DNA of 64,000 nt from Candidatus Levyibacteriota bacterium. GTDB lineage: Bacteria; Patescibacteriota; Microgenomatia; Levybacterales; UBA12049. The notes under the pieces are model-generated. The model had not been told where the DNA came from. It made no database searches and saw only the letters and a program-made list of their open reading frames with translations. The position numbers were made by a program, and so were the translations under genes. Each line of letters starts with the position of its first letter. Positions within the stretch are counted from its first letter, which is position 1. The DNA lies in NCBI GenBank assembly GCA_016182185.1, contig JACOXU010000003.1, positions 123,881 to 187,880 of the forward strand, given 5' to 3'. Below, piece by piece: positions 3,339 through 64,000 of the stretch.

Positions 3339-3466
3339 AATGATAAATTTCTAATTATTCTAATTTCTAATTGATCTAAACAAATTCCAATTTCAAAATT
3401 TCCCAAATAAAACTTTATGCTTGTAATTTTTTAGAAATTAGGTTAATTAGATCAATTAGGTCAATT
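3339..3466. repeat. intergenic AT-rich degenerate tandem repeat array (AATTAGRAATT family)
   Basis: CTAATTTCTAATTGATCTAA ... TTAGAAATTAGGTTAATTAGATCAATTAGGTCAATT. Confidence 0.5.
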
Positions 3467-8100: not shown

Positions 8101-9000
8101 ATGATTAAGAACCTGTCTAAAATTCTTAAAAATTCCCGCGGCGGCGCGGAGATTCTTATCCTGGTGATAATAATTCTCGGCAGTGTGCTTCTGACAGGAG
8201 GATTTTTCCCAAAAATTATTCCCCCTGATCCTAATGCTCCCAGATATACTGAAATTTCTGAAATTCAACCGGACAGTCAAAAAACGCTTCAGCTTAAAAC
8301 GATAAAATTTAAAGGTTGCACTTCAATTGTTGCGGTTGATTTCTTGGTAGACAGATCCGGTTCCATGAGATACGGCACGAAACTTGATAATTTGAAAAAT
8401 GCATTAAATGTTTTTGCCGGCAGTTTCCCTGAGGATGGAATAATTGGCATGCAGTCATATAGCGAGCCATCGTTTGGACCAACCGCTGATGTTCCGATTG
8501 ATTATTTTAAAAACGTAAAATCTCAATTTTTATCCGCTGTTTCCAGCTTATTTCCAAATGGCGGAACTTATTCAAAAGACGCATTTTCTTTTACAAAACC
8601 ATTACTTGATTCTGCCAGGGCCAAATTCCCCGATCATAAATTTTCCTTGATTTTTATATCAGATGGGGTGCCGGAGACATGGGAAGGAACGCGAAGATTG
8701 TGTCCCGACGGACCCGCAACTGCAGATCAAAGATATTGCGGACCAAAACCCGATAATCCAACTCAATGCAGATGTTTTGATACGAACCAGGATCCAACAT
8801 CAGTTGCCAATGAAATAAAACTCTCAGGTGTCAGAATTTTCACCATCGGTTATATCCATGACGAGGACCTTAAATTTCAAGATGATTTAAGAACGCTGAT
8901 GACCAACACTGCATCCTCTCCAACTGACTTCTATGAAGCGCCAATCGATAATCAGCTTACAGATATTCTCTCCCAAATCTCCCAAAAACTCTGTAATTAA
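8101..9000 (+). CDS. membrane-anchored vWA domain protein (paralog of 5748..6671)
   Basis: 299 aa; TM ending in GGFFP, MIDAS DRSGSM, Cys-rich insert, C-terminal SSPTDFYEA...C tail. Confidence 0.65.
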   Translation: MIKNLSKILKNSRGGAEILILVIIILGSVLLTGGFFPKIIPPDPNAPRYTEISEIQPDSQKTLQLKTIKFKGCTSIVAVDFLVDRSGSMRYGTKLDNLKNALNVFAGSFPEDGIIGMQSYSEPSFGPTADVPIDYFKNVKSQFLSAVSSLFPNGGTYSKDAFSFTKPLLDSARAKFPDHKFSLIFISDGVPETWEGTRRLCPDGPATADQRYCGPKPDNPTQCRCFDTNQDPTSVANEIKLSGVRIFTIGYIHDEDLKFQDDLRTLMTNTASSPTDFYEAPIDNQLTDILSQISQKLCN

Positions 9001-16204: not shown

Positions 16205-16348
16205 AAATTAAATTCTAAACTCAAAGCATCAAATCACAAATAATATCCAATTTCCAATACTCAAAATTCAAAATTGTTTTGGATATTAGAATTTTATATT
16301 TGTAATTTATTTGAAATTTGTAATTCTGGATTTAGAATTTAAGCAAGA

Positions 16349-17661: not shown

Positions 17662-20253
17662 ATGGGAAATCCTTTGCAGAAGGTAGTTGAACTTATTAAA
17701 ACATCAAGCCCCAAAAGGACAATAAGCATAATTGTCATCCTTATCATCGCCGCCGCCGTACCTCTCACTGTCATTGTTTCCCAACAACAGCAGGAAATCC
17801 GTCAGCGTGCAGCAGACTGTACAAACGGAATAATATCTGGAAGAGTCTTTTATGATAACAATCCCGAAAATGGCGTTTTTGACCCTACAGAACAAGGTTT
17901 CGATTTAATCGGACAACCAAATGTTGCCCAGGTGAACATGTGGAATAACGACACTGGAATAGCACTCAACAAAGATATAAGCGCCGGAAATGGTGTCTAT
18001 CAATTTACAGCCTCTACCAATAGAGATGGTTACCGCCTAAGATTTACTGCTCCCACGGGGTACAGGATCACAACGCCCCAAAATATTTCTCCATGGCAAG
18101 TAAGTCCGAGATCTGACGGGCGCTGGCAGGCAGATTACCCTGCCTTAAGACTCCCTCCATGTGCGCAAATATACGATTTTGGAATTACCAACGGTCAACC
18201 TCCTACGCCAACTGCTACACCTCCTCCAATCTCAAGCTGTGGTACAAATGGAAATGTTGTTTTTGACAATAAATCTTCGAGTCTCACAACTACAGCGGGC
18301 GCACCCACGACTCTTACGTGGAACCATACTGTGGGCTCTGGAAATAGTCGGCTATTGATTGTCGGGGTTAATCTTCGCACGTCTTCGGGAGGAAATATCA
18401 CTTCTGTTAGAGCCAACAATCAAAACTTGACTCGAATAGGAAATGTAATAAGTGTAGGCGGAACCTCAAGTCCGACAAGTAACTCCATGTGGTACTTACT
18501 TAATCCTCCCAGCGGTTTAGTGTCAATTTCGGTCACGGCAGACAGAAGTCTGACTATCTCAGCCGGTGCTTCAAGCTGGTCCAATGTAGACCCGAATAAT
18601 CCTTTGGGCAACTCAGTCGCAAATACAGGCAACAACTCCAATCCCAATCTATCAATAGCAGGACCTGCTTGCGGTGTTGTAGTTGATAATCTTGCCACAC
18701 CTATCGGCGACTGTCCTCAAACTCCATCTCCTGATTCGCTTCAGACCCTGCTTTGGAGCGTGAATGTGCCTGGAGATAATCTCTCTGATCAGGGAGGAAA
18801 GGGTCAAAGCGCAGGCAGTTATAAACAATCAGCTACTCAGACAACTATGTGGTGGAATAATGCTTGCAGCGGAGCTTGGGCTTTAAAAGCCGTTCCGGTA
18901 GCGGCATTTGAACCCACTCCCACACCAACAAATATTCCGACACCGACACCTACTCTAGTTGCTGGTGCCAAACCTCCCCCTTGTTTTGTCCCTGCTTCGC
19001 TTCTAAGTCAACTCGGGCTCCCAACTACTGCTGTAAGAGGCTATGGAGATGTTGATTTGGATGGTGATGTTGACATGACTGATGCTACCAAAATATTAAA
19101 TTTTGTTGCTCTAATTCCACCGCTTCCTTCACCTCTTCAAATTGAAGTGGCTGATGTTGATTCAACTTGGGGTGTTCTTTCCAATGCGTCAAGCATAACC
19201 TCAGTTGATTCACTCATGGTTCAAAGATATTTACAAAACTTACCCATACCATCACAATATAATCCACCGAACTCAAATACAATAAGTCTGCCGGTTTGTT
19301 TAGGCCAGCCTACAATCACGCCAACCCAACCGCCAACCCCTATTCCAACTACTATCAGGACGCCAACTCCAACCACTACGCCTCAGTGTACATCCGGTCA
19401 AACATGCACTGCATGTACTGCACCTGCTAATACTTGTAATGGTTCAGGCACTCAAAGCTGTACTCTGACAACAACCTCTACTGGATCTACAAACTGCCAG
19501 CAAGTTACGACTCATAATATTTCCTGTACCGGCGCGCCGGCCAACTGCACAAATGGTAATGTTTGTGTAAGTAACGCCTGTGTTGCTCCAACCGGAGTGC
19601 CCACGGCAACTGTTGTACCCACCCTGACGAAGCCTCCAGGAGTTACTGTTACAGAAGCGCCAAGAATAAGCCCGACCGCTGTTCCGACTATTCCAACCGG
19701 TAATACAGTCTTTGCCCTAAACATTGGACTTGATGGAATTGGAACTGTCGGAGATAATGTCAATCCGAATAATTCGAGTGGCTCCAATAAAAATCCATTG
19801 AGAACATCAAGAAGCGTAACTATTCAGGTGTTTGATAACAACAACACCGAGGTAGCAAATAAGTCCGGCACGCTTACCTATCAAACAGGAAGCGGCAGAT
19901 TTACCGGAAATGTGGATATGGATAGGCTTGCAAGCGCAAATTACAATGTCAAAGTAAAATCTCCAGGCTATCTAAGACGTCTTATTCCTGGAATTCAAAA
20001 TGTGACTGCCGGTCAGGCGTTTAATCTCCCGAATGAAAACTTGGTTACGGGCGATATCAACGGGGACAATGCAATTAATATTCTGGACTACAATATATTT
20101 ATAAGCTGTTCTATCTTCAGTAAAGACGGACAAGCAGTCTGCAACCAGAACCCTGACTACAAAACGCTCTCTGACCTTGATGACAACGGGGCAACTGATC
20201 AGTTTGATTACAATCTGTTTGTCAGAGAACTTTCAGTCCAAAACGGAGATTGA
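17662..20253 (+). CDS. large cell-surface protein with SdrD-B-like domain, Cys-rich module and two dockerin-like modules
   Basis: 863 aa; N-terminal TM+SQQQQEIRQRAAD; GRVFYDNNPENGVFD (Cna/SdrD B-like); Thr/Pro linkers; dockerin-like GDVDLDGDVDMTDATKILNFV...VDSLMVQRYL and C-terminal GDINGDNAINILDYNIF...DLDDNGATDQFDYNLF; about 180-aa domain shared with the giant protein at 58607..64000. Confidence 0.55.
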   Translation: MGNPLQKVVELIKTSSPKRTISIIVILIIAAAVPLTVIVSQQQQEIRQRAADCTNGIISGRVFYDNNPENGVFDPTEQGFDLIGQPNVAQVNMWNNDTGIALNKDISAGNGVYQFTASTNRDGYRLRFTAPTGYRITTPQNISPWQVSPRSDGRWQADYPALRLPPCAQIYDFGITNGQPPTPTATPPPISSCGTNGNVVFDNKSSSLTTTAGAPTTLTWNHTVGSGNSRLLIVGVNLRTSSGGNITSVRANNQNLTRIGNVISVGGTSSPTSNSMWYLLNPPSGLVSISVTADRSLTISAGASSWSNVDPNNPLGNSVANTGNNSNPNLSIAGPACGVVVDNLATPIGDCPQTPSPDSLQTLLWSVNVPGDNLSDQGGKGQSAGSYKQSATQTTMWWNNACSGAWALKAVPVAAFEPTPTPTNIPTPTPTLVAGAKPPPCFVPASLLSQLGLPTTAVRGYGDVDLDGDVDMTDATKILNFVALIPPLPSPLQIEVADVDSTWGVLSNASSITSVDSLMVQRYLQNLPIPSQYNPPNSNTISLPVCLGQPTITPTQPPTPIPTTIRTPTPTTTPQCTSGQTCTACTAPANTCNGSGTQSCTLTTTSTGSTNCQQVTTHNISCTGAPANCTNGNVCVSNACVAPTGVPTATVVPTLTKPPGVTVTEAPRISPTAVPTIPTGNTVFALNIGLDGIGTVGDNVNPNNSSGSNKNPLRTSRSVTIQVFDNNNTEVANKSGTLTYQTGSGRFTGNVDMDRLASANYNVKVKSPGYLRRLIPGIQNVTAGQAFNLPNENLVTGDINGDNAINILDYNIFISCSIFSKDGQAVCNQNPDYKTLSDLDDNGATDQFDYNLFVRELSVQNGD

Positions 20254-24402: not shown

Positions 24403-26610
24403 TTATCTCACCATGAAGCTTATCTCAACTGCAGTGAATCCTTTTCGTTCAATTTTTTCTATAACAGGCGGTATGTAAGAATAACTGGGGCTATTATCGA
24501 GATTTTCTATATAAAAAACTATATTTCGATAGGTGTCAGGAGATGGAGCTATTACGAGCGGGAGGATTTTTTTAGATGTCGCATCATCAAACAAAGATAT
24601 AAAAATATAAGAAGAAACTGCTCTCGTTTTTACAAATTCCAGGGTATCGGCAGATTCTTTCTCGTTTAAGCCCAACCGGCTAGATATTTGCTCAATTAAA
24701 TCCTGGACTTTTTCTTTCCTGACTACATATCCCTTAACTGGTTTATCAACATTAATCGCAGGCTCATAATCGAATTTAAAAGAAGAAACTCTTTCATTTC
24801 CGCTTGTAAAAGTACCATCACCATTTAGAATAACATTTAATCCCAAAGCTGGACTATAATTAGTATTTAAAGGATAAATGGCCGTAGTAGAATAAACAGA
24901 AACGCTTTTCCCTTCCTGTCCATACAGATACAATGGGCTGTCAGAGCATGATCCTGCCAAGTCTATCCAGGCATCGTGAAAACACTGTTGAAATTCAGGA
25001 TCTTCGGGATAATCAGGATCCCACACGCGGTTTTTCATGATATCCAATGGGTAATCTTTTCCGAGAATTTCATTGCATTGCGCAGCAGCTCTCGCGTAGC
25101 AAGCATTGGGATTTATGACATGCTTAGGAGCTGAACTTGGTGCCGGCTGAGGAGGCACAGGATCAGATTGCTGAACCAGTCTCTTGGGAGCAAGGGATGG
25201 TTTAAGTTCAAATGTTTGTAGTTGGATTTGGTTTCTTAATTGATCTGTTCCTAGAGAAAGAAGCTTAGACGAAAAATAACCCTGCGGTTTCAGATCAATC
25301 ATTTGCACGAGGCCTTTATCAAGATTCACCGTTGTTCTACTTTGAGCTGGTATATCCAGTAAATACATTGAATTAATTAATTGACTGTACTTCCCGCCAA
25401 GATTTCCCAGTTCTGAATCAGAGGTTGTTTTATCTACAGCAAGATACTTATTTTCAGAAACTAATGTAAGTATGTCCGTCAATTTTGTCCCAGTCGCAAT
25501 GTTATCTAAATTAATTTTTTGAGAGTTATTTGTGCTGACATTATAGAAATACGTGCCAGACAAAGAATCGTTTTTTGAAATTAATCTATAAACAATATTT
25601 CCGGTGAGCCTATCCCAGTTGGGATCTGAAAATATATCGTCGTTACTAGTTGCAAGAAGAGTCTTTTTCTGCCTTGTGGCAAGATCGAAGATTTCAAGCG
25701 TGTTGGATGACAAAATCGCCCTTCTGAATCCGTCAGTCTCCGAAGTTCCAGAACCTTTACGTCCATCGTAGCCTGCAAAAAGCAGTTTCTTGCCGTCCGG
25801 CGATACTTCAGGCTGGGTACTTATCATCCCATTGGTAAGTGAGGGAATATCCTGTTTATTCGTGCCTGTAAAATTTGAAACCGAGACACCGTAACCCCAG
25901 CCAGCACCTGAATTTGGGAGAAATTTATCAGTAAATAAATCTCCGCTGTCAGTTATGGCAATCGGATACGCCAGAGTAACTCCAAGTCCTGAAGTTTCAT
26001 CGTAGATAAGATTTTTTTGTGCTGGATTTGATGTATCAAGTGTATATACCCTTGATTTCCCCCCAAAGAGTGCGCCTCCCTCAGATGGGCTTACTTCCCA
26101 AACTGCCAAATATTTGGAGTTTGGGGAAACGACATAATCATCAATCCCATACCCGCTATCTGCGGTTATAACAGTTGTTTCTGTCTTAGTATCAAATGCT
26201 CTAATTACGACTTGTTTCCCGTAGTCATTTGCATCGGTATCTTTAATATAGCTAATTCTTTTCGAATCTAAAATTTTGACATGTTTTACATTCGATGGAA
26301 GCTCAACAAGTATACCGCTTTGACTTGTTGATAGGTCCAAAACTGAAATTGTTGATTTGTCTTTACTCCAAGATCCATAGATAAATGAAACTGGAGCGAT
26401 GTATGCGGTTTGTGTTTTATTTTTGTCGTCTTGCTGCTGTGGAGGATTATTTGCCTTATCGTTTTGGCTTTTTATAAATATGCCTCCTGCCAAAGAAAAA
26501 ACAACCAGAAAAAAGATTAAAATCCATTTGGCGCTATCAGAACCCAGACCAAAAAACCTTTTGACTTGAGGTGCTTCAGAAGGTAAATTTTGGGCAGTAT
26601 TTTCTTCCAT
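24403..26610 (-). CDS. large membrane-anchored extracellular protein, beta-propeller-like repeats plus C-terminal LNEKES domain
   Basis: 735 aa; N-terminal TM; TolB/WD-like SPDGKKL, SPNSKYLAVW repeats; C-terminal 250 aa homologous to 6712..8085. Confidence 0.5.
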   Translation of the reverse strand: MEENTAQNLPSEAPQVKRFFGLGSDSAKWILIFFLVVFSLAGGIFIKSQNDKANNPPQQQDDKNKTQTAYIAPVSFIYGSWSKDKSTISVLDLSTSQSGILVELPSNVKHVKILDSKRISYIKDTDANDYGKQVVIRAFDTKTETTVITADSGYGIDDYVVSPNSKYLAVWEVSPSEGGALFGGKSRVYTLDTSNPAQKNLIYDETSGLGVTLAYPIAITDSGDLFTDKFLPNSGAGWGYGVSVSNFTGTNKQDIPSLTNGMISTQPEVSPDGKKLLFAGYDGRKGSGTSETDGFRRAILSSNTLEIFDLATRQKKTLLATSNDDIFSDPNWDRLTGNIVYRLISKNDSLSGTYFYNVSTNNSQKINLDNIATGTKLTDILTLVSENKYLAVDKTTSDSELGNLGGKYSQLINSMYLLDIPAQSRTTVNLDKGLVQMIDLKPQGYFSSKLLSLGTDQLRNQIQLQTFELKPSLAPKRLVQQSDPVPPQPAPSSAPKHVINPNACYARAAAQCNEILGKDYPLDIMKNRVWDPDYPEDPEFQQCFHDAWIDLAGSCSDSPLYLYGQEGKSVSVYSTTAIYPLNTNYSPALGLNVILNGDGTFTSGNERVSSFKFDYEPAINVDKPVKGYVVRKEKVQDLIEQISSRLGLNEKESADTLEFVKTRAVSSYIFISLFDDATSKKILPLVIAPSPDTYRNIVFYIENLDNSPSYSYIPPVIEKIERKGFTAVEISFMVR

Positions 26611-26887
26611 TACTTAAATAATAGTGGAAAAATATTCGTCGGTCAAGAGGTGGTAGGAAACTATTGAATAGAATTTATCTACCCTCAGTATAACGGATAG
26701 ATCAAGCGCTATTCATTCTCCCGCCAAAGGCGGGATTCGCTTGTGGCCAATACACTTTCTCGCAAAATTTCTACTCTTAACCTAATTAGAAATTAGAAAA
26801 TTAAAAATTAGAAATTCCACTCCGCGTCAGCGGAGGGGCTTAGGTGTCTTCTCTCAATCCAATACTGAGTAAAATCGAAGTATTAGA

Positions 26888-28340
<1,453 letters not shown>

Positions 28341-34555: not shown

Positions 34556-35657
34556 CTGAATAGGTACTATTACCCACATTTTTAACTATCCCCTTAATCT
34601 CCATCATTGATAAAATACTCCCGAGTTTTGAGGAATCAATCCTTGTCTTTCGGGCAATTTCATCAAAATACAATTCCTCATTCCTCAAAGCTTGTAAAAT
34701 CAATCTCTCTTCTTTACTCTCTGTTTTATATTTTGTAGTTTGGGTTTTTGGATTTATTTGAGATTTGTAATTTGGAATTTGTAATTTTAATTCATTTAGT
34801 ATATCTTCAGTAGACGTTACCAACTTCGCTCCCTTATTTATCAGCTTATAAGGTCCTTTCGACAAGACAGAATTAATCGGACCCGGCACTGCGAAAACCT
34901 TGCGATTAAATTTGAAGGCAAAATCAGCTGTAATAAGAGAGCCCGAATCCTCTGCTCCTTCTGTGACTAAAACTGCCTTGGATAATCCTGCTATAATTCT
35001 ATTTCGTGAAGGGAAAAGACCCTTGCCTGGTAAGTAACTTAGGGGAACCTCGGAAATTACGCAGCCTCTGCCATTAATAATTTTGTCATAAATATTTTTA
35101 TTATGTATCGGCGTGCAGCAATCCACTCCACATCCCAAAACTGCGATAGTCTTCCCGCCATTTTCAAGAGTAGATAAATGCGAAATCCCGTCAATGCCTA
35201 ACGCCAGACCAGATACTATTGTAAAACCTGATAAGCTTAAATCTTCAGCAAACTTCTGGGTGACTTCCTTTCCATAATTTGTTGGCTTTCTTGATCCGAC
35301 AATTCCAATTGTCTGTTTCAATTCATCTTTAAACTTCTCAAATCTTAATCCTCTGCCAAAAAGGACAAATGGCGGATTGGGAATCTCAAGAAGAAGTTCG
35401 GGATAACTTGTGTCATTACTTGTGATGAACCAGGCATTCTTCTTTTTTAATTTTTCCAAGTAATCTTTTATAGAAAATTCATTCCTGAATTTATCAAACT
35501 TAATTGTCAGCTTGTCCCCCAAAACTTTTTTTAAATCTGTTATTTCGGCTTTCCATGCTTTTTCTGCTGTTCCAAACTCGGCAAGCAGTTTTTTAAATTT
35601 CAAAGGTCCTACTCCAGAAAACACCGAAAACCCCAACCAATAATTTCTTTCCTCCAT
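34545..35657 (-). CDS. dprA: DNA processing protein DprA (Smf) with C-terminal winged helix
   Basis: 370 aa; Rossmann core GIVGSRKPTNYG...GLALGIDGISH; linker codes an intergenic-type repeat word. Confidence 0.8.
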   Translation of the reverse strand: MEERNYWLGFSVFSGVGPLKFKKLLAEFGTAEKAWKAEITDLKKVLGDKLTIKFDKFRNEFSIKDYLEKLKKKNAWFITSNDTSYPELLLEIPNPPFVLFGRGLRFEKFKDELKQTIGIVGSRKPTNYGKEVTQKFAEDLSLSGFTIVSGLALGIDGISHLSTLENGGKTIAVLGCGVDCCTPIHNKNIYDKIINGRGCVISEVPLSYLPGKGLFPSRNRIIAGLSKAVLVTEGAEDSGSLITADFAFKFNRKVFAVPGPINSVLSKGPYKLINKGAKLVTSTEDILNELKLQIPNYKSQINPKTQTTKYKTESKEERLILQALRNEELYFDEIARKTRIDSSKLGSILSMMEIKGIVKNVGNSTYSVKE

Positions 35658-45611: not shown

Positions 45612-45694
45612 ATTAACCTAATTAATCTAATTGACCTAATTTCTAAATTGGGATTCTGTTTAGGTTAACTAGAAATTAGAGTGATTAGAAATTT

Positions 45695-46519
45695 ATGAAG
45701 ATCATCTTCTTTGGAAGCTCAAAATATTCGGTCATTGTTGCTAAAAAACTCCATCAGGAATTCAATTTAAAACTTGTTGTTACTACTCAAGCCGATTCCT
45801 TTCCTGTTAAATTTGCAGCAGAAAATAATATCGACCATAAGGTTGTCTCGAAGTTTGATAGAGAAACTATCGAACAGATAGAAAAATACAAACCCGATTT
45901 TAATGTTGTGGCTGATTTTGGCAAAATTCTTCCCGAAGAATTGCTCAAACTACCTAAATTTGATTCTTTAAATGTCCATCACTCACTTCTTCCCAAATAT
46001 CGAGGGCCATCCCCTGCTCCCACTGCGATTTTAAATGGAGAGAAAGTAACCGGCGTGTCAATTATTTCTATGCAAAGGGGCGTGGATCAAGGACCAGTCT
46101 TTCTCCAAAATGAATATGAAATAAAAGATATCGATACAACTGATTCGCTTCTTACCAAATTGAATGTTTTGGGCGCTGATTTAGTATCTAAAGTCATTAA
46201 AAATTTTGAGAATGAAAAGCCTATTCCGCAAGATGAATCCGAAGTGACGATTACATATCTTTTAAAAAGAGCTGATGGTTTTATTGATATAGATAATCCT
46301 CCACCGCCTGATAAATTAAATCGAATGATCAGAGCTTATTTTCCTTGGCCCAATGTTTTCTTTGAGGCTAAATTAAATGGAAAGGGGAAAATTATTAAGC
46401 TCTTGCCGGATAAACAAATTCAAGCCGAGGGAAAAAAGCCAATGAGCTATAAAGACTTTATCAATGGCTATAAAGAGGGAAAATATTTACTCCGCAAAAT
46501 TAACCTAATTTCTAATTGA
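45695..46519 (+). CDS. fmt: methionyl-tRNA formyltransferase (short C-terminus)
   Basis: 274 aa; SLLPKYRGPSP motif, follows def. Confidence 0.8.
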   Translation: MKIIFFGSSKYSVIVAKKLHQEFNLKLVVTTQADSFPVKFAAENNIDHKVVSKFDRETIEQIEKYKPDFNVVADFGKILPEELLKLPKFDSLNVHHSLLPKYRGPSPAPTAILNGEKVTGVSIISMQRGVDQGPVFLQNEYEIKDIDTTDSLLTKLNVLGADLVSKVIKNFENEKPIPQDESEVTITYLLKRADGFIDIDNPPPPDKLNRMIRAYFPWPNVFFEAKLNGKGKIIKLLPDKQIQAEGKKPMSYKDFINGYKEGKYLLRKINLISN

Positions 46520-46610
46520 TCTAATGTCTAAAACTTTGTTTTGAATTTAAGATTTTGAATTTGGAATTTGTTTAGAAATTGGAAATTAGGATTTAGAAAT
46601 TTGGTGCTAT
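46500..46610. repeat. intergenic degenerate tandem repeat array (GGAATTTGG / AGAAATT units, about 11-bp period)
   Basis: TTGAATTTAAGATTTTGAATTTGGAATTTGTTTAGAAATTGGAAATTAGGATTTAGAAATTTGG. Confidence 0.5.
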
Positions 46611-48578: not shown

Positions 48579-48600
48579 CTACAAAGCCCGTTTGACGCAG

Positions 48601-48684
48601 TGCTAGGTGAGGGACTCGAACCCCCGTAGCCCTTCCGGGCGCCTCGTCTACAGCGAGGAGCAATTGCCGCTATGCGAACCTAGC
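48601..48684 (-). tRNA. tRNA-Tyr (anticodon GTA, long variable arm)
   Basis: acceptor GCTAGGT/ACCTAGC, anticodon stem CCTCG/CGAGG loop CTGTAGA, variable arm CGCCCGGAAGGGCTAC. Confidence 0.7.
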
Positions 48685-49041
48685 ATTTAAATTCATTCCA
48701 ACTTTTAGAACCAACAACTATATGAGCTTTTGTGATTACTTTTTCTGCAGGAATCAAATATTTTTCTCCATTACTGCAATAAATAAATAAGAAATCGAAA
48801 TCCTCGCTTTTATATCTATTATGATATGTCTTTTTTCTATATCCACCAAATGTTCTTAAATCAATATTGTAACCACCGCTTGATTCCTTGTCATCTGTAT
48901 ATTTACATTGAATCTTCTTAAAATTACCATCGTCTATCACCAAATCATACAAATCGCAATCCGCTATTGGAAGAAGAACAGTATTCCCTTTGGCTATAAA
49001 ATGATCGATGGCTACTCCCAATGCCAAACTTCCTTTTCGTT
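48680..49041 (-). CDS. hypothetical small protein with possible PD-(D/E)xK / Hjc-like nuclease core (start trimmed; track ORF reads through tRNA-Thr)
   Basis: about 120 aa; LLPIADCDLYDLVIDDGNFKKIQCK resembles restriction-endonuclease-like core; inserted between tRNA-Thr(TGT) and tRNA-Tyr. Confidence 0.3.
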
Positions 49042-49093
49042 TAGTATTCACGTATTTATTATACGTGGTTACTATACACGTGTCAATGTGCTG

Positions 49094-49165
49094 AGCCGAA
49101 GGTGGGATTCGAACCCACGACTTGCTGTTTACAAAACAGCTACTCTGCCACTGAGTTACTTCGGC
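49094..49165 (-). tRNA. tRNA-Thr (anticodon TGT)
   Basis: acceptor GCCGAAG/CTTCGGC, D-arm ACTCAGTGGCAGAGT, anticodon stem GCTGT/ACAGC loop TTTGTAA, T-arm GGGTTCGAATCCC. Confidence 0.7.
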
Positions 49166-49470
49166 CAATCCAACCTATTTTACCAAAAAGAAAATGAAAT
49201 TAATATCCCCTTTGGGGCCTGAACCAGAAGATTGTAGGAGAGATAAATTCGTCCTTGATACCGAGAACAGCTGGTGTCTCCCCATATATGTAATTTAGGA
49301 AGGCTATTAAATTTGGCGCACCAAACCTAAACTTGCCTCGTCCCCCCCCTTTTTTAAAAAAGAGGGGGTACCTCATATGTGGTGAATTTGTAGAGGAAAA
49401 ATATCCAACTTTCTCTAGTATCAAAGAACAAGAATAGTATAAATCTATTTACTGAAAAAAGTCAATCCCA

Positions 49471-56174: not shown

Positions 56175-56714
56175 ATGAGTAATAAAATAAGTACCAACAG
56201 ACAGAAAAAAGAACAGATAATTGCCGGCCTTAGCGAGAAGATCGAAAAGGCTCAAAGCATAGTCTTTACCAACTATCAGGGGCTTACTCACAAACAGCTT
56301 GAAGATCTTAAAAAAGCTTTAAGGGCTTTGAATGCAGAAATCATCGTAGTGAAAAATACCCTACTTGCCCGCGCGCTTCAAATTTCATCCGCCAATTCGG
56401 CGGATCAAATTTCAAATTTTGAGGGCCCTACCGGTGCCCTCTTTATCTATGAAGATATCATTCTTCCTCTAAAACAGCTAGCCAAAAGTATCAAATTATT
56501 AGGTTTGCCCACGATAAAATTTGGCATATTGGATAATCAAGCGCTAACCGGCGAACAGGTGCTAAAATTAGCCTCACTTCCCTCCCGTGAAGTCCTCCTA
56601 GCGCAAGTGGTCGGCGGACTCAAGTCGCCTATTTATGGACTACATCGCGCACTTAATTGGAACCTTAATAAACTTGCATTAACAATCTCTGCTATAAGGC
56701 AGAACAAATCCTAA
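56175..56714 (+). CDS. rplJ: 50S ribosomal protein L10
   Basis: 179 aa; typical L10 N-terminus. Confidence 0.85.
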   Translation: MSNKISTNRQKKEQIIAGLSEKIEKAQSIVFTNYQGLTHKQLEDLKKALRALNAEIIVVKNTLLARALQISSANSADQISNFEGPTGALFIYEDIILPLKQLAKSIKLLGLPTIKFGILDNQALTGEQVLKLASLPSREVLLAQVVGGLKSPIYGLHRALNWNLNKLALTISAIRQNKS

Positions 56715-56719
56715 GCACA

Positions 56720-56805
56720 AAATTCAAAACAGTTTGGAATTTGGGATTTTGAGAATTGGAATTTGTTTAGAATTTAGATATTTGGATTTAGAAATTACCG
56801 ACCGA
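56720..56805. repeat. intergenic degenerate tandem repeat array between rplJ and rplL
   Basis: GTTTGGAATTTGGGATTTTGAGAATTGGAATTTGTTTAGAATTTAGATATTTGGATTTAGAAATT. Confidence 0.5.
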
Positions 56806-56819
56806 AGGGAGGTGTACAT

Positions 56820-57221
56820 ATGGCAGAAAAGAAATCGAAAATTGATGAATTAATGAAGACAGTCGAGGAAATGTCTGTTCTTGAACTTTCAGAGTTTGTG
56901 AAAGCACTGGAAGAAAAATTTGGTGTAACTGCACAAGCTATGGCCACGTCAAACGTGGTTACAGGAGGAAGCGAAGCCGCGTCTGACGCGGAGCCGAAAG
57001 AGGAACAAACAGTCTTTAACGTAGTAGTCGCAAGTTCCGGCGCCAACAAAATCTCTGTTATCAAAGCCTTAAGAGAACTCGTTCCCACATTGGGACTTAA
57101 AGAAGCCAAAGATTTGGTCGATGCAGCTCCAAAAGAAGTAATGACCCAAGTCAACAAAAAAACAGCAGACGAAGCCAAGGAAAAACTCACGGCAGCCGGC
57201 GCAACAATAGAGCTAAAGTAA
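56820..57221 (+). CDS. rplL: 50S ribosomal protein L7/L12
   Basis: 133 aa; NTD MAEKKSKIDELMKTVEEMSVLELSEFVKALEEKFGV, Ala/Glu hinge, CTD; carries 26-nt GC element in hinge. Confidence 0.9.
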   Translation: MAEKKSKIDELMKTVEEMSVLELSEFVKALEEKFGVTAQAMATSNVVTGGSEAASDAEPKEEQTVFNVVVASSGANKISVIKALRELVPTLGLKEAKDLVDAAPKEVMTQVNKKTADEAKEKLTAAGATIELK

Positions 57222-57239
57222 GAATCGCTAAAAAGTCTT

Positions 57240-57350
57240 AACGAGTCTTAATGAGATTTCTTAACGATCTTAACGATACGGGATCGTCAAATGTCATCAA
57301 ATGTCATCAAAGAAATGCGTTGTTCTTACGTAATTATCTGCGTAATTCTG
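57240..57350. repeat. cluster of short direct-repeat iterons downstream of rplL
   Basis: 4x CTTAAYGA(G/T), 2.5x GTCATCAAAT, 2x GCGTAATTnTCTGCG, followed by palindrome GGGCAACAAGTTGCCC and TTGACA. Confidence 0.5.
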
Positions 57351-57471
57351 CGGAGGGCAACAAGTTGCCCCTTGACAAGAAGTGTTATGGTTTGTTATTT
57401 TGTAGATAGTTAACTTATATATTGATCCTAATTAAATATGGATTGATTAGAATAAATATAGTCTTGAGCCT

Positions 57472-57687
57472 ATGAGTAATCAAACTCTATCAATCAATAA
57501 TCTTCCTGATCTTCTTACTGTTCGTGAAGTTGCTCAAATTCTCCGTGTTTCTCCGCTTACTATAAAACGCTGGGGCAAAAGAGGTAAGCTTCCTGCCATC
57601 CGTATAAATTCCCGTGGCGACCGAAGATATAAAAAAGAAGCAGTAATGTGGCTACTTGGCATACAGGAAAAAAGAGAAATCCTCTAG
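57472..57687 (+). CDS. excisionase-family (MerR-like) HTH DNA-binding protein
   Basis: 71 aa; LLTVREVAQILRVSPLTIKRWGKRGKLPAIRINSRGDRRYKKE matches helix_turn_helix excisionase-family pattern. Confidence 0.55.
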   Translation: MSNQTLSINNLPDLLTVREVAQILRVSPLTIKRWGKRGKLPAIRINSRGDRRYKKEAVMWLLGIQEKREIL

Positions 57688-57781
57688 AAAATTCCTAAAT
57701 CCTAATTACCCTAATTACTCTAAATAAATCCCAAGTCCCAATTTTAAATTTTTAGATCAATTAGGTCAATTAGAAATTAGG
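57688..57781. repeat. intergenic degenerate tandem repeat array (AATTAGGTCAATTAGAAATTAGG family)
   Basis: CCTAAATCCTAATTACCCTAATTACTCTAAAT...TTAGATCAATTAGGTCAATTAGAAATTAGGTTAATTA. Confidence 0.5.
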
Positions 57782-58135
57782 TTAATTATTAATACTTAAT
57801 ATCCTTCCAAATATTCTGATTAGAGCTTCGCTTTCATCCTCAATAAACCCGATTGTCTGATGAGGCTTTCTACCCTCTGAGCTCTTCAGGATTTTTACCC
57901 AGTATTTAGTTTCTCTCATTTCTCTTTTGGCCTGTGTCATTTTAAACACGAAGTCTTTCCCTTCTGCAACTTTGGCTTTTTCATAAACCTCCTCTGCCAT
58001 TTTGATCTTGCGCGTAATCTGATTGGAAAGTACAAAATTCACACTGCTGTAAGGAAGTTTCTCCCTAAGCTCCATTGCGAAAGACAGGAGGTTCAATATC
58101 CTTCTCTCTATATAATGCGTTAGTTCAATACTCAT
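57782..58135 (-). CDS. four-helix-bundle protein (PF05635 / bAvd-like)
   Basis: 117 aa; RETKYWVKILKSS ... EALIRIFGRIL matches conserved ETxYWL core of family. Confidence 0.5.
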   Translation of the reverse strand: MSIELTHYIERRILNLLSFAMELREKLPYSSVNFVLSNQITRKIKMAEEVYEKAKVAEGKDFVFKMTQAKREMRETKYWVKILKSSEGRKPHQTIGFIEDESEALIRIFGRILSINN

Positions 58136-58197
58136 ATTATAAAATTTCTAAATCCTAATTATTCTAATTACTAATCAAATCCCAATTCTCCAATTTA

Positions 58198-58557
58198 TTA
58201 TTTAACTTTTTTATATATTGAATTGAAAATTAAGTTTAGTTCTTTTGCTTCCTGCCATAATATTCTTGCTTCTTCTTTTAACTGTGGGGCAGCAACTACA
58301 ATCATTCGCAGAAAATGTTTTACTTCTCTTGCTTCTTTTTTGCAGATTCCTATTTTATGCTTAAAATCTTGTTTACTTTCTGCATCATCCGCTTCTGAGT
58401 AATTTGCGCCAATACTTGTCTCTGCTTTAACAAGCTGACTAATCAAAGGGTTGGTTATTGGGTTTTTAGAAATTGACTTACAAAAGATAATGACATTCTT
58501 TCCAAACTTTGCCGTCCTCTCTTCCAGATCGTACTTGTTATTTATTTTTTTATTCAT
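58198..58557 (-). CDS. four-helix-bundle protein (PF05635 / bAvd-like)
   Basis: 119 aa; QLVKAETSIGANYSEADDAESKQDFKHKIGICKKEAREVKHFLRMI matches 23S-rRNA-IVS/Avd family core. Confidence 0.6.
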   Translation of the reverse strand: MNKKINNKYDLEERTAKFGKNVIIFCKSISKNPITNPLISQLVKAETSIGANYSEADDAESKQDFKHKIGICKKEAREVKHFLRMIVVAAPQLKEEARILWQEAKELNLIFNSIYKKVK

Positions 58558-58606
58558 TTATTAGGTTAATTAGGTCAATTAGAAATTAGTTCAATTTGCT
58601 GGTGAG
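58558..58606. repeat. intergenic repeat array between giant gene and 4HB gene
   Basis: TTAGGTTAATTAGGTCAATTAGAAATTAGTTCAATTT. Confidence 0.5.
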
Positions 58607-61600
58607 CTACCGTTCGTCGACTATCCACCAATCAAACTTGATATCTCGACTGTAGCGTCTTTCAATCTCAACTGTGAAGCCTGAGCCGGCTGCTTTATTC
58701 GTAACCACGAGCGGCTGGCCTCCGGTAAGGCTTGTGGCAGTCACAAATATTCTGGATTTATTGGTCACGGCAGCCGTATCAACTACCACACTCGTATCTC
58801 CTGCGAGCAGGGTCCCCGAACCCAGCGAAGCCGCGTTTGACGCGGTGGTATCGATATTGACTTTCTTGGCTGTGATTTCACCTTCTGTTTTTATATTTCC
58901 ATTGGTATCAATCGTGACTTTGCCTGAGAGTATATTTATCCCACCCAAGCCATTGCTCTGAAGGTTCAAATCTCCAATACTATTTATAGATGCTCCCCCA
59001 TCTCCATTGTTAAGCGATGAGTCAAGTCCGTGAATTGACAAGAGCCCTGCTGCGATGTTACCGGTCACTCCCAGATCTGCAGTCGTCGTTCTGCCCAGCA
59101 CCATCAAGTTGCCTGATATTGTCGCGCTCTCTGCGTTGATATTGGTCAGATCAGGTAGAAGCGAAGCCGCGTTTGACGCGGTTGAGACACCCAATACTGC
59201 TCCATTCAGCATGCTCTGCAGGAAGGCAGATTCTGATGCCAGCTGATCCACTCTTTGTGAGAGACTATTGGTATTAAGCTCTAAGCCGGTTACTCTATTT
59301 TGCATATCCGCGAACAACGGATCACTACTCAAATCAAATGTCCCCGAAGATGAAGCTGACGATACGGGATCGTTACTTGGGTTGATCAGTCCCAGCAACT
59401 GGCTCGCCTCCTCCGCACTAAACTGCGCATATGGATTAGTCACGCTCCCATCTGCTGCAATTTGAATCCTCGGATCTCTCCAGGAAAGGTTTATAAATAC
59501 TGAAATTTTACCAATAATATCCGGATCTGAGTTGCTGTAGCCTTCAATAGCAATCCCTATAACCATTCCCGGCTTTGTTGCCTTCATGGCTACACCGGGC
59601 TTACTTGATGCAGTAAGAGAATCACCCGGCATTATTTCTCCATTTTCCGCAGATACTTTTACAGGAACACGACCAGAAAGAGCAACAGCGACTTCTTTTA
59701 CTGATCGGGGGTCTGTTTTCTGACCATGCCCACCAAGCAACACACCTGGTTTTTCTGAGATGACACCAAGCATTGCAGAATTTGTGGATGACTTTTGAAC
59801 AAATTCTGTTTCGTAGTCATGTTCAAAAGGATTATCAGGTGGGGTATCAGGTTTGGGCTGATAATTTAAACTTACAACGTCCCCAGCTTCTATTGAATCA
59901 TCAAGCGTCGGGAAATTTTCAGCTATATCATCAATCGTAAAGCTTGAACTAATACCATATACAGTACCTGCAGTTCTTGAAGCATCAATACAGTCGTCTG
60001 CAGTATCTAGAGAATCATCTGCGCAGATAGCTCCATAGGCTAGTATACCATTGCCGCCTATATTAGTAGTCACATTAGCTCCGGCTGCTCCGACAAGCAA
60101 ATCCCCCCCGCTTCCTCCTGTGACAGTAAATATAGTAGCCCCCGAGGCTGAGGCGGTAAAAATATCTAGACCAGATGTTTGGTTTATAACTGCTGCTGCC
60201 TTACCGCCTGATGCTCCGGAAAGATTAAGCATCGAACCAAGACCCGAGCTTGTGACGTTAAGTACGGCCCCTGTTGAAAGCCCATTACTCTGGGTAAGAG
60301 AAAGAACATTTGCAGTATCGGTACAGCCGCCAGTGGTAATACTGCAATTGGATGTCAGATTTGCCAATGAGCCAGATAGACTAACAGATCCAACTGGTAT
60401 CATAGAGACTCCATTGTCTACCCAATTGCCTGACCCCGTATTAGACCACGAATGAGTTGGATTCTCTTGCGTGCTGTCTGAATAAGCTACGGATGGATTA
60501 AGAAATCCGCCCTGTCTTTTTGTATTAACCCCCGTAGTCGTGAGTGTTCCGCTAACCGCTGAGGCTACTATATCTATTGCCGTTCTGCCCAAAGAGTTTG
60601 TGATGGCATTATTAGGCGTAGTACTAGAACCAGTTGAAGAGGTACAACCTGCAAAAGCGCTTCCTACAGTTTGATTAATGTTAAAGTAGCTGGCAGTAAT
60701 AACATAACCACGATCACTTCCACTTCCATTGGTGAAGTTTACACTTGTTGTATTAGCGCCTGAAGATGAAGAATCCCCCATTGCTATAGCAAAAATATCC
60801 GTAGCTACACTAGTGCCATTTGTAGCCTGACTACAGACTCTCGTAGCGGAACTTCCGCCGTACGTTACAGTATTAATTGTTTCAGAATTTGCATTCTGAT
60901 ATGCAATGGCTATTACCACCATACGGTTGCTTCCTGCTCCCAAAGTATGGCTGTTAGTTATTGTAGTATTAGTAAGAGTCCAACTACTTATAACAGAGGA
61001 GTCATAAACACTTGTATTTATGCTTAAATTTCGATTTAGATTTAGCAAATTACCGGAGTCAGTATTGATAGCTGTATATGTAGCGGTATGATCTCCATTG
61101 ATAAGATTGGCAGAAGTCAAATTGGCAGAAGTGGAAAGGACATTTAGGCCCTTACCCGTAGTTAGGGAATTTGCGGCGATTGAGAACGCGTCTCCTGTAG
61201 TTGCAGAAGAGGTTGCAAAGACAGACCCCCAATTATTTATAGTAAAGACTGTGCTTCCCGATTTTGATGCTGTGAAAATATCTGCATTTGGTGAAAGGTC
61301 TGTTTGATTTACTCTAAGAGCTGCGTTATTCCCGCTGATGCCGGATATGTCTAATAATCCTATTGGACTTGTATTTCCGATACCTACTCTGCCAATATTA
61401 TTTATAACAAATTTTGTAGAGCCTGAAGAAGAGGCGGATAGAATATAATCATTTGTATTAGTTCCAGTTTGGTTGAGAATCATCAAAGCGTTGTGTCCGT
61501 TGTTGCCTGATAGATCAAGGAGTCCAAGTGGGCTTGTGTTGCCGACCCCGACCCTACCAAGATTGTTGATGACAAATTTGGTAACACCAGAGGATGAGGC

Positions 61601-64000
61601 AGCCAAAACATAATCGTTGGCATTGGTACCAGTCTGGTTAAGGATCATTAAGGCGTTTTGTCCGTTATTACCAGATAGATCAAAAAGACCTAAGGGAGTC
61701 GAATTCCCAATCCCAACTTTACCGAGTTTATTTATAACGAACTTAGTTGTCCCGCTCTTTGAAGCTGTAAAGATGTCATTATTCCCTGTCTGATTGATAA
61801 TTGCAGCTGCCTTACCACCGGAGGCTCCTGAAATATTTAGCATTGGCCCAAGACCTGAGGTGGCGATGTTGAGTACCGCACCTGTCGAAAGACCATAACT
61901 CTGGTTAAGAGAAAGAAGATTTGAACTATCATTGCAAATTCCAGCTGTTACAGTACAATTAGAGGTTATTGACGCAAGGCTTCCCGTAAGATCTGCTGTG
62001 CCTACTCCGGGAACGAGTGCCACTCCTAGATGATACCAAGATAAATCAGTACCACCGGCAGTCCAGGCCATGTTGGTGCTTGCACCTGTAGCTGATTCTT
62101 CCGAATAAGCGGCTACATAGACTGTCGAGCCGTATGTTTGGTTCCATCTCTGCGTTTGATTACTTCCTCCAGGAAGTGAGAGTGTCGGGTTTATGCCTGC
62201 ATTCAGCATAGAATCTATTACAACATCCCCGCTCTGGCTTGTAACATTTAAGCTTGGGCTGGTACCCGAACCTGTTTCGGTCTGACAAGTAGCACGAAAT
62301 GGGCTTGTTTGAGAGACTCCGCTATAAGTTGTTGCTAAAGCGACCCAGGTCTCACTATTACCTAATGTTATTGATACAGTATTTGAACCCGAACTTGGAT
62401 TAAGCAAATAATACATATCTATGGCTTCTGTTCCTGGTGAAAAAGTACAGCCTGGAATCAAAGTGAGCGCTGAACCGTTATAAGTAATAGATGATATTCC
62501 AGCATTTCCTGCTCTTGATACGGTAACTATTAATATACGGTTGTCACCCGTTCCGGTAGTGTGTGAAAAATTAGCTGAACTACCTGTTTGCTCAGCCAGA
62601 GTGGTACTATTATCATAAGCAATAGTTTGAGTTGAGGTATTCAGAGTATAATTTCTACTAAGGCTTGCTAAATTTCCAGAAATATTAGCATTACTCGTAC
62701 CGGTATACGTATTGGTCTGGTTTACATTTAATCCTTTACCACTCGTCAGCGAATTTGCTACGATTGAGAAGGCGTCTGTCGAAACTGCAGAAGAAGTGGC
62801 ATAGATACCTCTATTTATAGTATCAAAATTGAGCATCGAACTTCCGGCAGCATCTGCAATCTGAAGAGCTGTTGATGAATTGGTCAAAGGCAGCCATTGC
62901 GCACCTGCGACGGAGACCAGATTTCCTCCGTTTGTAATTCTGAACTTGGTCGTTCCGCTTGTTGAGGCGGCTAGAATGTCATTCGTGCTTGCGCCGGTTT
63001 GGTTGATGATAAGAGCGGCGTTTCCTCCCTGATTTCCTCCTTGCAAATCCAGAAGCGCAGTTGGGGTGGTTGTGCCGATGCCCGCCCAGACATAATTCGC
63101 TCCAGTCCCTCCAAGAACCAGCCTATTGCTTGCTCCCACAATCGCGTTGTATCCAAGGGCTGTAGAACCGTTGATGCTGTTTGATGATGTTTGAGATAGA
63201 TATCCTATGAATGTGTTGTTGCTTCCCGAGGTGAGTGGAACACCTTGAGTGCCTGCTGAAACTCCGATGGCTGTATTGCCCGAGCCTGTAACATTTTGAA
63301 GAGCAGCGTTTCCCAACGCAGTGTTATTGGTTCCTGTATTTCCAGAGCTAAGACCTACGAAGGTGTTCGTTCCTCCGGGTGCTCTGAATAGATTATTATT
63401 GGATTGTTTTATGATAATCTCTCCGGTCGTATCTCCTCCGATAGTCAAAGTCCTTTGGGCGGTTGACTGTATACTTCCGCCTGCTCCGAGCGAGAAATTA
63501 CCGGCGATAGAAGCAGTAGGAGTACCCGAATTGATATTCAAGACTGCGAACTTTGCAGATTGGGTCGTGGTTCCACCCAGAAGAAGATCAACTGTATTGG
63601 CAAAGGCAGGAGTATAAGCTCCACTCACCAGATCCCATCTTGCGCCTGCACAGTCACTTGAAGCAGTAACTATACCATTTGAGGTAGTTACACAGGAGCC
63701 TGATACATCTGCTCCGGCTGTGCCATTGATCCTGAGCTTACTTGATCCAGCCAAGCTGATATTTATATCTCCTGTGTCTCCTCCGCCCAAGGTCAGAGTT
63801 TGTCTATTCGTAGACGTAAGACTTCCTGCTGTATCTATAGTAAATCCTGCAGCAGATGAAGCATTACCGCTGTTGGTGACTCTGAATTTAGTTGCACCGG
63901 ATGAAGAGGCGGCAAGAATATCACCGTTTGAAGTAGAATTATTGACTATAAGAGTCGCGTTGTTGCCTGCGTCTCCGGTTATTTCAAGAAATGCTTTAGG
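58607..64000 (-). CDS. giant Gly/Ser/Thr/Asn-rich repetitive surface protein (partial; N-terminus beyond window)
   Basis: ORF track 58607..63790 (1727 aa) starts at an in-frame TTG; reading frame stays open to position 64000; tandem about 57-aa repeats (NQTGTN..DY.L.ASSSG.TKFVINN.GRVG.GNTSP.GLLD), two copies of about 180-aa domain shared with 17662..20253. Confidence 0.6.
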   Translation of the reverse strand, partial: PKAFLEITGDAGNNATLIVNNSTSNGDILAASSSGATKFRVTNSGNASSAAGFTIDTAGSLTSTNRQTLTLGGGDTGDINISLAGSSKLRINGTAGADVSGSCVTTSNGIVTASSDCAGARWDLVSGAYTPAFANTVDLLLGGTTTQSAKFAVLNINSGTPTASIAGNFSLGAGGSIQSTAQRTLTIGGDTTGEIIIKQSNNNLFRAPGGTNTFVGLSSGNTGTNNTALGNAALQNVTGSGNTAIGVSAGTQGVPLTSGSNNTFIGYLSQTSSNSINGSTALGYNAIVGASNRLVLGGTGANYVWAGIGTTTPTALLDLQGGNQGGNAALIINQTGASTNDILAASTSGTTKFRITNGGNLVSVAGAQWLPLTNSSTALQIADAAGSSMLNFDTINRGIYATSSAVSTDAFSIVANSLTSGKGLNVNQTNTYTGTSNANISGNLASLSRNYTLNTSTQTIAYDNSTTLAEQTGSSANFSHTTGTGDNRILIVTVSRAGNAGISSITYNGSALTLIPGCTFSPGTEAIDMYYLLNPSSGSNTVSITLGNSETWVALATTYSGVSQTSPFRATCQTETGSGTSPSLNVTSQSGDVVIDSMLNAGINPTLSLPGGSNQTQRWNQTYGSTVYVAAYSEESATGASTNMAWTAGGTDLSWYHLGVALVPGVGTADLTGSLASITSNCTVTAGICNDSSNLLSLNQSYGLSTGAVLNIATSGLGPMLNISGASGGKAAAIINQTGNNDIFTASKSGTTKFVINKLGKVGIGNSTPLGLFDLSGNNGQNALMILNQTGTNANDYVLAASSSGVTKFVINNLGRVGVGNTSPLGLLDLSGNNGHNALMILNQTGTNTNDYILSASSSGSTKFVINNIGRVGIGNTSPIGLLDISGISGNNAALRVNQTDLSPNADIFTASKSGSTVFTINNWGSVFATSSATTGDAFSIAANSLTTGKGLNVLSTSANLTSANLINGDHTATYTAINTDSGNLLNLNRNLSINTSVYDSSVISSWTLTNTTITNSHTLGAGSNRMVVIAIAYQNANSETINTVTYGGSSATRVCSQATNGTSVATDIFAIAMGDSSSSGANTTSVNFTNGSGSDRGYVITASYFNINQTVGSAFAGCTSSTGSSTTPNNAITNSLGRTAIDIVASAVSGTLTTTGVNTKRQGGFLNPSVAYSDSTQENPTHSWSNTGSGNWVDNGVSMIPVGSVSLSGSLANLTSNCSITTGGCTDTANVLSLTQSNGLSTGAVLNVTSSGLGSMLNLSGASGGKAAAVINQTSGLDIFTASASGATIFTVTGGSGGDLLVGAAGANVTTNIGGNGILAYGAICADDSLDTADDCIDASRTAGTVYGISSSFTIDDIAENFPTLDDSIEAGDVVSLNYQPKPDTPPDNPFEHDYETEFVQKSSTNSAMLGVISEKPGVLLGGHGQKTDPRSVKEVAVALSGRVPVKVSAENGEIMPGDSLTASSKPGVAMKATKPGMVIGIAIEGYSNSDPDIIGKISVFINLSWRDPRIQIAADGSVTNPYAQFSAEEASQLLGLINPSNDPVSSASSSGTFDLSSDPLFADMQNRVTGLELNTNSLSQRVDQLASESAFLQSMLNGAVLGVSTASNAASLLPDLTNINAESATISGNLMVLGRTTTADLGVTGNIAAGLLSIHGLDSSLNNGDGGASINSIGDLNLQSNGLGGINILSGKVTIDTNGNIKTEGEITAKKVNIDTTASNAASLGSGTLLAGDTSVVVDTAAVTNKSRIFVTATSLTGGQPLVVTNKAAGSGFTVEIERRYSRDIKFDWWIVDER
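61390..61900 (-). repeat. intragenic tandem repeats, about 171-nt unit x3, inside giant gene
   Basis: units share about 80 percent identity (…CAAATTTGGTAACACCAGAGGATGAGGCAGCCAAAACATAATC… vs …CAAATTTTGTAGAGCCTGAAGAAGAGGCGGATAGAATATAATC…). Confidence 0.6.

Follow-up and report, generated by a model that had tools for sequence, protein, structure and literature searches.

A probable intervening-sequence-like hairpin cassette carries a four-helix-bundle gene behind a giant gene in Candidatus Levybacteria

Why do two small genes for four-helix-bundle (4HB) proteins stand directly behind a giant gene in a genome of Candidatus Levybacteria, a member of the candidate phyla radiation (CPR)? The locus lies in a stretch of 64,000 nt of this one genome (contig JACOXU010000003.1), hereafter the window. 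On the minus strand the order is the giant gene, a 49-nt gap, 4HB-2, a 62-nt gap, 4HB-1 and a 94-nt gap up to a convergent gene for an HTH_17/MerR-like protein, beyond which lie rplL, rplJ and the L10 leader. An earlier note on this DNA had reported the two open reading frames (ORFs) and the three gap lengths, all of which we confirm (57782-58135 and 58198-58557), and had offered two readings: a degenerate remnant of a diversity-generating retroelement (DGR), or a distinct use of 4HB proteins. The second was right in spirit; what it missed is a hairpin-bounded cassette and a site of recurrent insertion. Our best explanation, which as a whole we regard as probable, is that 4HB-2 and its two arms (58141-58597) form a cassette of ~460 bp that is built like the ORF-bearing intervening sequences (IVSs) of rRNA genes, looks selfish and rides on host transcripts within a protein-coding transcription unit, and that 4HB-1, which lacks arms, is an older copy passed down vertically at the site. 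The features of the locus are as follows.

58607..64000, running beyond the window end, minus strand: 3' portion of the giant gene (at least 2484 aa), proposed as the host gene for read-through into the cassette
58558..58597, minus strand: UP arm of the 4HB-2 cassette, AAATTGAACTAATTTCTAATTGACCTAATTAACCTAATAA, abutting the ATG without a Shine-Dalgarno (SD) sequence
58198..58557, minus strand: 4HB-2, 119 aa, TIGR02436/PF05635, NCBI MBI2032007.1, of the CTAATT-armed subfamily
58141..58185, minus strand: DOWN arm of the 4HB-2 cassette, TTGGGATTTGATTAG with (N)AATTAG units and AAATTTT, reverse complement of the UP arm
57782..58135, minus strand: 4HB-1, 117 aa, divergent and arm-less, NCBI MBI2032006.1, a lineage-specific resident of the site
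57688..57790, minus strand: ORF-less hairpin next to 4HB-1 (UP' ~57752-57785, DOWN' 57688-57741; dG -26.8, z -4.5)
57472..57687, plus strand: convergent HTH_17/MerR-like gene that bounds the insertion site

Both small proteins are already annotated (as 'four helix bundle protein' at NCBI) and are in themselves ordinary: they are members of the S23p, or '23S rRNA intervening-sequence protein', family and not DGR Avd proteins. 4HB-2 scores above both curated cutoffs (TIGR02436, 63.9 bits against a cutoff of 24; PF05635, 43.9 against 33.8), and 4HB-1 is above the first (31.3 bits) and below the second (21.2 bits). The NCBIfam Avd equivalog NF033474 (cutoff 80 bits) gave no match at E <= 0.1 for either protein. 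The structure prediction proposed in the earlier note gave confident four-helix bundles for both AlphaFold2 monomer models (pLDDT 92 and 95). They resemble bAvd, as suspected there, and the best Foldseek match for both is the S23p protein 2RLD (TM 0.8-0.88; 0.75-0.88 when 2GSC is included). 4HB-2 aligns with bAvd (4DWL, 8UB7) at TM 0.64-0.76, ranking below 2RLD and 2GSC; for 4HB-1 the bAvd matches reach 0.8, about level with 2GSC. Thus the fold is common to bAvd at TM 0.64-0.8, and 4HB-2 is structurally closest to S23p proteins. The 2RLD structure has five chains, and 2GSC is a homopentamer (PMC4990558). 4HB-1 and 4HB-2 are 38% identical across 34 aa (E 1e-4), a similarity so remote that a recent tandem duplication is ruled out. 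An exact look-up of the 4HB-1 sequence in assemblies returned no record.

What sets 4HB-2 apart is its surroundings. More than 6500 relatives were found, of which the best 120 are 75-85% identical, and a scan with one genome per species returned 315, the best 80 of which, at 66-81% identity, span nearly all CPR classes as well as Ignavibacterium, Melioribacteraceae, Caldithrix, Bacteroidota and Eisenbacteria. Cassette statistics were taken from 77 non-redundant loci with a 4HB-2-type protein of 66-81% identity. In nearly all of these, an array of CTAATT units (CTAATT plus 1-3 nt; unit length 9 or 7 nt) reaches the ATG from upstream, with exactly three units in 59 of 77, and the downstream side carries TTGGGATTTGATTAG followed by AATTAG units that are the reverse complement of the upstream array. 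The window copy has the same CTAATT/AATTAG arms as these relatives. Duplex energies of the arms in this family are ~-30 kcal/mol, compared with -16 for shuffled sequences, and a terminal stem closes the whole 471-nt window element in both the minimum free energy and the centroid folds. 4HB-2-type genes have unrelated housekeeping genes as neighbors, such as G6PD/6PGD and pheT/PBP.

How such a gene might be expressed is suggested by its position. There is no room for a promoter in the cassette, an SD-like motif is found in 0 of 77 family members, and the cassette reads in the same direction as the upstream gene in 72 of 77, the stop codon of that gene and the 4HB ATG being a median of 42 nt apart. 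Together these features point to expression by read-through from the upstream gene. Substitutions within the 4HB-2 family are saturated at synonymous sites (pS 0.80) and sparse at nonsynonymous ones (pN 0.18), for a dN/dS of ~0.1. The arms are thus kept while synonymous sites are not, and both the protein and the arm motif are under purifying selection, which is strong for the protein. In three of four genomes with several copies, the copies are each other's nearest relatives.

Some further features of the family deserve mention. The gene downstream of the cassette often begins 5-15 nt past the last AATTAG...AAATTT unit with no visible SD sequence (e.g. loci L021, L024, L036, L045, L052 and L083), and the cassette end may supply or replace its translation-initiation region. 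Copies annotated outside the CPR (L016, L020, L022 and L038, from Bacteroidales, Ignavibacterium and BMS3Abin03) group with L042, from an unclassified 'bacterium' metagenome-assembled genome, at 84-86% nucleotide identity, compared with a family median of 72%, which suggests that they form a clade of their own, structured to some extent by host group. In a Paceibacterota locus (L078, 2-7974), a giant ORF of 2522 aa with no detectable similarity to the window giant protein stands 39 nt before a 4HB-2-type cassette with an in-frame stop in its ORF.

Is the design peculiar to the CTAATT family? A profile search of all fetched loci returned more 4HB paralogues from many subfamilies, nearly all with arms of their own, built from units (each with its complement) such as TTATCAA, GCGTATA, CAAGATAC, CGATTTA and TTAACG. 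Across 12 subfamilies, the arms of one locus are far more complementary to each other than to those of other subfamilies (-28.9 vs. -12.5 kcal/mol; permutation p < 5e-5), and 4HB flanks exceed those of control small ORFs in self-complementarity (p = 1.6e-5 and 4e-18). At 17897-18700 (plus strand) of locus L073, a Berkelbacteria 16S rRNA gene has near its 5' end an IVS of ~450 nt with a 4HB ORF, its arms made of GACAGA/GACGGA-type units and their complement; the same locus also holds a CTAATT-type cassette at 8347-8703. In the 23S IVS of Coxiella, tandem GACAGAT heptamers precede the S23p ATG, a 28-bp terminal stem encloses the ORF, the SD sequence is poor and excision is by RNase III (PMC4990558). 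Since these two rRNA IVSs are built like the cassette, the intergenic element and the classical rRNA IVS share one design, and the self-complementary arms of the other subfamilies and of the 16S IVS lead us to describe that design as an IVS-like hairpin cassette in mRNA operons.

The comparison with ORF-bearing rRNA IVSs (Coxiella burnetii, Leptospira and CPR rRNA insertions) can be drawn closely. The protein family (S23p, PF05635) and fold are the same, a long terminal inverted repeat holds the ORF in its loop, short tandem units come right before the ATG, a good SD sequence is missing, and expression relies on the host transcript (PMC4990558; PMC11270868; L073). Unlike those elements, the window cassette stands between protein-coding genes and not within 16S or 23S rRNA (the window 16S gene is at 26887-28338), its arms are arrays of 7-9-nt units kept across phyla, and ORF-less derivatives are scattered intergenically. 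RNase III processing belongs to the rRNA case, whereas the cassette described here is known from its sequence.

Two classes of intergenic repeat invite comparison as well. In REP/REPIN-RAYT systems the RAYT gene is flanked by REP sequences, and here, too, a low-copy gene sits between inverted copies of its cognate repeat and ORF-less repeats occur in intergenic regions; however, the protein is a 4HB protein and not an HUH/Y1 transposase, and the number of ORF-less copies is modest (~4 per 64 kb). Correia/NEMIS and ERIC elements are transcribed palindromic intergenic repeats that are processed as RNA. The likeness lies in their imperfect palindromes of ~80-130 nt, located in operon intergenic regions and co-transcribed with host genes, but those elements have no ORF, whereas the full-length 4HB cassette encodes a conserved protein.

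The ORF-less derivatives in the window comprise the hairpin next to 4HB-1 and three others with CTAATT/AATTAG arms:

3339..3466, minus strand: ORF-less hairpin co-oriented with both flanking genes (dG -26.7, z -3.6)
45612..45694, plus strand: ORF-less hairpin occupying an entire intergenic gap (dG -17.4, z -2.1)
46498..46609, plus strand: ORF-less hairpin (dG -26.1, z -4.6)

All four are co-oriented with the neighboring genes, and their folds have z-scores of -2.1 to -4.6. The UP' array of the 57688-57790 hairpin provides the stop codon of 4HB-1, and in locus L090 the reading frame also runs into the UP' array. A strict regular-expression census found ~11 ORF-less hairpins in 1.1 Mb, a number so small that we do not claim a high-copy family resembling miniature inverted-repeat transposable elements. 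There is also a family of direct repeats with 62-72% identity (TTTGGAATTTG...GGATTTAGAAATT) at 16253-16341, 34700-34788, 46514-46602 and 56709-56797. These repeats lie in intergenic regions, among them the one between rplJ and rplL, look like degenerate DOWN arms and may be the remains of old cassettes.

We then asked what happens at the same position in related genomes. A metagenome scan with the C-terminal 200 aa of the giant protein yielded 74 loci, 63 of them informative. At the orthologous site, the window and L095 have an intact 4HB-2 cassette, L090 has one with an internal deletion between intact arms, and L087 has a degenerate one; another subfamily with other arms takes its place in L088 and L089. 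In L111 and L112 the site is cleanly empty and the convergent genes are 6 nt apart, L142 has a deletion remnant, and up to three 4HB ORFs stand in tandem in L092 and L093. In at least 22 of the 63, a 4HB ORF follows within 700 nt, without exception on the strand of the giant gene; the filter overlooked three further cases, and at least eight 4HB subfamilies occur at the site. 4HB ORFs number ~1 per 5 kb (30 per 144 kb) downstream of the giant gene, compared with 7 per 265 kb elsewhere, or 1 per 40-60 kb away from the giant gene. With non-orthologous occupants, empty sites and remnants, we favor the view that the 3' end of the giant gene is a recurrent insertion hot spot.

Not every occupant is an armed cassette. 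4HB-1 has a handful of relatives, all at one syntenic site (giant gene, 4HB-1, HTH, rplL; the HTH gene is absent in L090), and these orthologues have a dN/dS of ~0.08-0.10. The same slot behind the giant gene is filled in related genomes by TIGR04258 (four-helix-bundle suffix) and TIGR04256 (GxxExxY) proteins. The long suffix type starts 7-11 nt past the stop codon of the giant gene and, like 4HB-1, has no recognizable arms; in two loci (L104 and L121) GxxExxY genes (TIGR04256, 121 bits), whose products have a PD-(D/E)XK-like fold and not a 4HB fold, come directly after the giant-gene stop instead of a 4HB gene. In L087, a gene for an IS200-like Y1 transposase (PF01797; 3352-4026, minus strand) lies right after the 4HB-1 orthologue, in a genome in which the 4HB-2 cassette is absent or degenerate.

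How might an IVS-like cassette persist? It would be transcribed by read-through from the host gene, and its arms would pair, either as RNA that is cut by RNase III like an rRNA IVS or in single-stranded DNA. The basic 4HB protein (pI 9.5 for 4HB-2) may recognize its own repeat arms and help the cassette to persist or spread, and a third option for the arms is that they serve this protein as binding sites arranged in inverted arrays. Solved homologues of the protein are pentameric, and its relative bAvd binds nucleic acid. A broader version, to which we give only a modest chance, is that 4HB 'IVS proteins' are trans-acting factors of a widespread and so far unrecognized class of hairpin-bounded elements, each subfamily recognizing its own arms as RNA or DNA. 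Arm recognition would then promote excision, stabilization or copying of the cassette, a cellular reverse transcriptase (RT) or nuclease might be recruited, as bAvd recruits bRT, and rRNA IVSs would be the special case of an element that landed in rRNA.

Several results weigh against the cassette explanation as a whole. Arms of the CTAATT family do not covary locus by locus (-30.1 for the same locus vs. -31.7 across loci), and the arm spacers are not significantly mirrored (p = 0.55). Sense and antisense arm pairings are equally stable (-30.07 vs. -30.15), with no RNA-specific G-U asymmetry, so RNA pairing, a DNA palindrome and inverted protein-binding sites are not told apart. The fold of the whole element is no more stable than those of shuffles (z = -0.68). 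The control small-ORF flanks are themselves fairly complementary in these AT-rich genomes, with a median of -20.8. No target-site duplication is evident at the arm ends, and the cassette encodes no mobility enzyme. Finally, 4HB genes are enriched roughly 25-35-fold behind the giant gene, and this could stem from a functional link and not from a hot spot.

That last possibility is the core of an explanation we consider unlikely, in which the 4HB protein, especially of the arm-less 4HB-1 type and the long suffix type, acts with the giant protein or the neighboring HTH protein as a regulator, chaperone or RNA-binding factor. The same-strand 4HB genes at 22 or more of the 63 sites, their density there, the confinement of 4HB-1 orthologues to this one site at a dN/dS of ~0.1 and the start of the long type 7-11 nt after the giant-gene stop would all fit such a partnership. 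It is hard to reconcile with occupants that are non-orthologous, that in many cases bring their own arms and that include nuclease-like GxxExxY genes, with sites that are empty (L111) or decayed (L090 and L142), and with 4HB-2-type genes in wholly unrelated contexts. Distinctly unlikely in our judgment is an element moving as DNA, whose arms are terminal inverted repeats or hairpins for a trans-acting transposase of the REP/RAYT or IS200/IS605 kind, with ORF-less copies as non-autonomous forms and the 4HB protein as cargo or accessory factor. The arm complementarity is strand-symmetric, ORF-less copies exist, same-genome copies are nearest relatives, orthologous sites are polymorphic for presence and absence and many genomic locations are occupied, a Y1 transposase gene adjoins the 4HB-1 orthologue of L087, and the layout recalls a RAYT gene between REP sequences. 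However, 76 of the 77 elements have no transposase nearby, no target-site duplication is evident, scans of IMG/VR turned up no viral copy to serve as a vector, DNA transposition alone would not need the strong co-orientation with host genes, and ORF-less forms can arise in place by deletion, as in L090. That plain stand-alone 4HB genes happen to lie beside arms which are nothing but regulatory DNA of the host (terminators, promoters or AT-rich intergenic repeats) seems to us extremely improbable: CTAATT/AATTAG-like motifs do occur in several window intergenic regions without a 4HB gene and a sigma-70-like TTGACC lies inside the unit, but even with synonymous sites saturated these arms go with the gene in distant phyla and different neighborhoods, the arms change with the protein subfamily, and no terminator-like sites were found in 57000-59000.

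This leaves the DGR with which the question began. In its degenerate or split form the giant gene would be a former or current target, the 4HB genes would be avd, and the RT and template repeat (TR) would be lost or elsewhere in the genome. DGRs are common in CPR, the fold is shared with bAvd (TM roughly 0.65-0.8), the proteins are small and basic (pI 9.5), and a large gene followed by a 4HB gene fits the DGR layout; moreover, the RT and TR searches of this genome span the 64 kb of the window, which leaves room for a split DGR and to that extent counts against the cassette. Nevertheless we judge a DGR very improbable. As the earlier note had observed, there is no RT within the window: a six-frame scan for Y-x-DD matched, among long ORFs, only a PDDEXK_5 endonuclease ORF. 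The ~1.5 Mb of related loci, 86 of them (1.1 Mb) surrounding 4HB-2 relatives and 74 (0.4 Mb) surrounding giant-gene relatives, contain no DGR-type RT motif (IGxxxSQ...YxDD); looser candidates there proved to be RecF, DnaB, MraY and an AMP-binding enzyme. The 3' end of the giant gene, for which the earlier note had proposed a TR search, has no copy in the window, where no part of the giant gene is repeated outside itself, and no pair of TR and variable repeat was found. Mismatches between the internal repeats of the giant gene (71-76% identity) are not adenine-specific (12/44, 13/44, 20/48, 6/48 and 5/20). The window, L087, L088 and L090 show strong conservation over the last 170 aa of the giant protein, where a DGR target would be variable, and the Avd model is unmatched. 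4HB-2 is structurally nearer S23p than bAvd, although for 4HB-1 bAvd is about level with 2GSC. Eight non-orthologous subfamilies at the site speak against avd genes, as do close relatives of 4HB-2 between unrelated housekeeping genes, the very observation that the earlier note had named as pointing to ordinary stand-alone proteins. The remnant reading falls on the lack of RT, TR and variable repeat in the DNA searched, the conserved giant C-terminus and the unmatched Avd model.

The IVS-like cassette bears on questions that have stood since the 1990s, namely the function of the S23p/IVS 4HB protein and the origin of ORF-bearing rRNA IVSs. This parent family of the DGR Avd occurs in great numbers in CPR and Bacteroidota genomes. 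4HB genes generally travel with subfamily-specific self-complementary arms, in and outside rRNA, and their own arms, together with the decay to ORF-less hairpins and the pile-up at particular sites, yield a concrete hypothesis, that the protein recognizes its own arms. They also counsel caution: a 4HB gene behind a large gene is, alone, no evidence for a DGR. We found no description of the arm-flanked operon cassette, of the subfamily-specific arms or of the giant-gene hot spot in the searchable literature, which covered few subscription journals, so that this is weak evidence of novelty.

Several observations concern the neighboring genes. Positions 58159-64000 of the window are matched at 100% identity by a Logan contig from SRR12113430, and it is from this contig that the length of at least 2484 aa for the giant gene was read; Pfam and PDB sequence searches gave no match for the giant protein. 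The 71-aa HTH_17/MerR/BldC-like protein is 88-94% identical across L091-L155, where the adjoining giant C-terminus is only 40-76% identical; such conservation beside rplL is unusually strong for a small DNA-binding protein. A PD-(D/E)XK endonuclease ORF (PF11645, 84 bits; 48680-49168, minus strand) lies between tRNA-Tyr (48600-48684) and tRNA-Thr (49093-49165) and is thus another small nuclease-like ORF within a stable-RNA gene cluster. The window has no 23S gene; its 16S rRNA gene is on the minus strand and is followed at its 3' side by an ORF of 735 aa with no Pfam match (24403-26610, minus strand) and then by tRNA-Cys and tRNA-Ile. Just past the 16S 3' end, at 26780-26821, is a weak DOWN-arm-like match.

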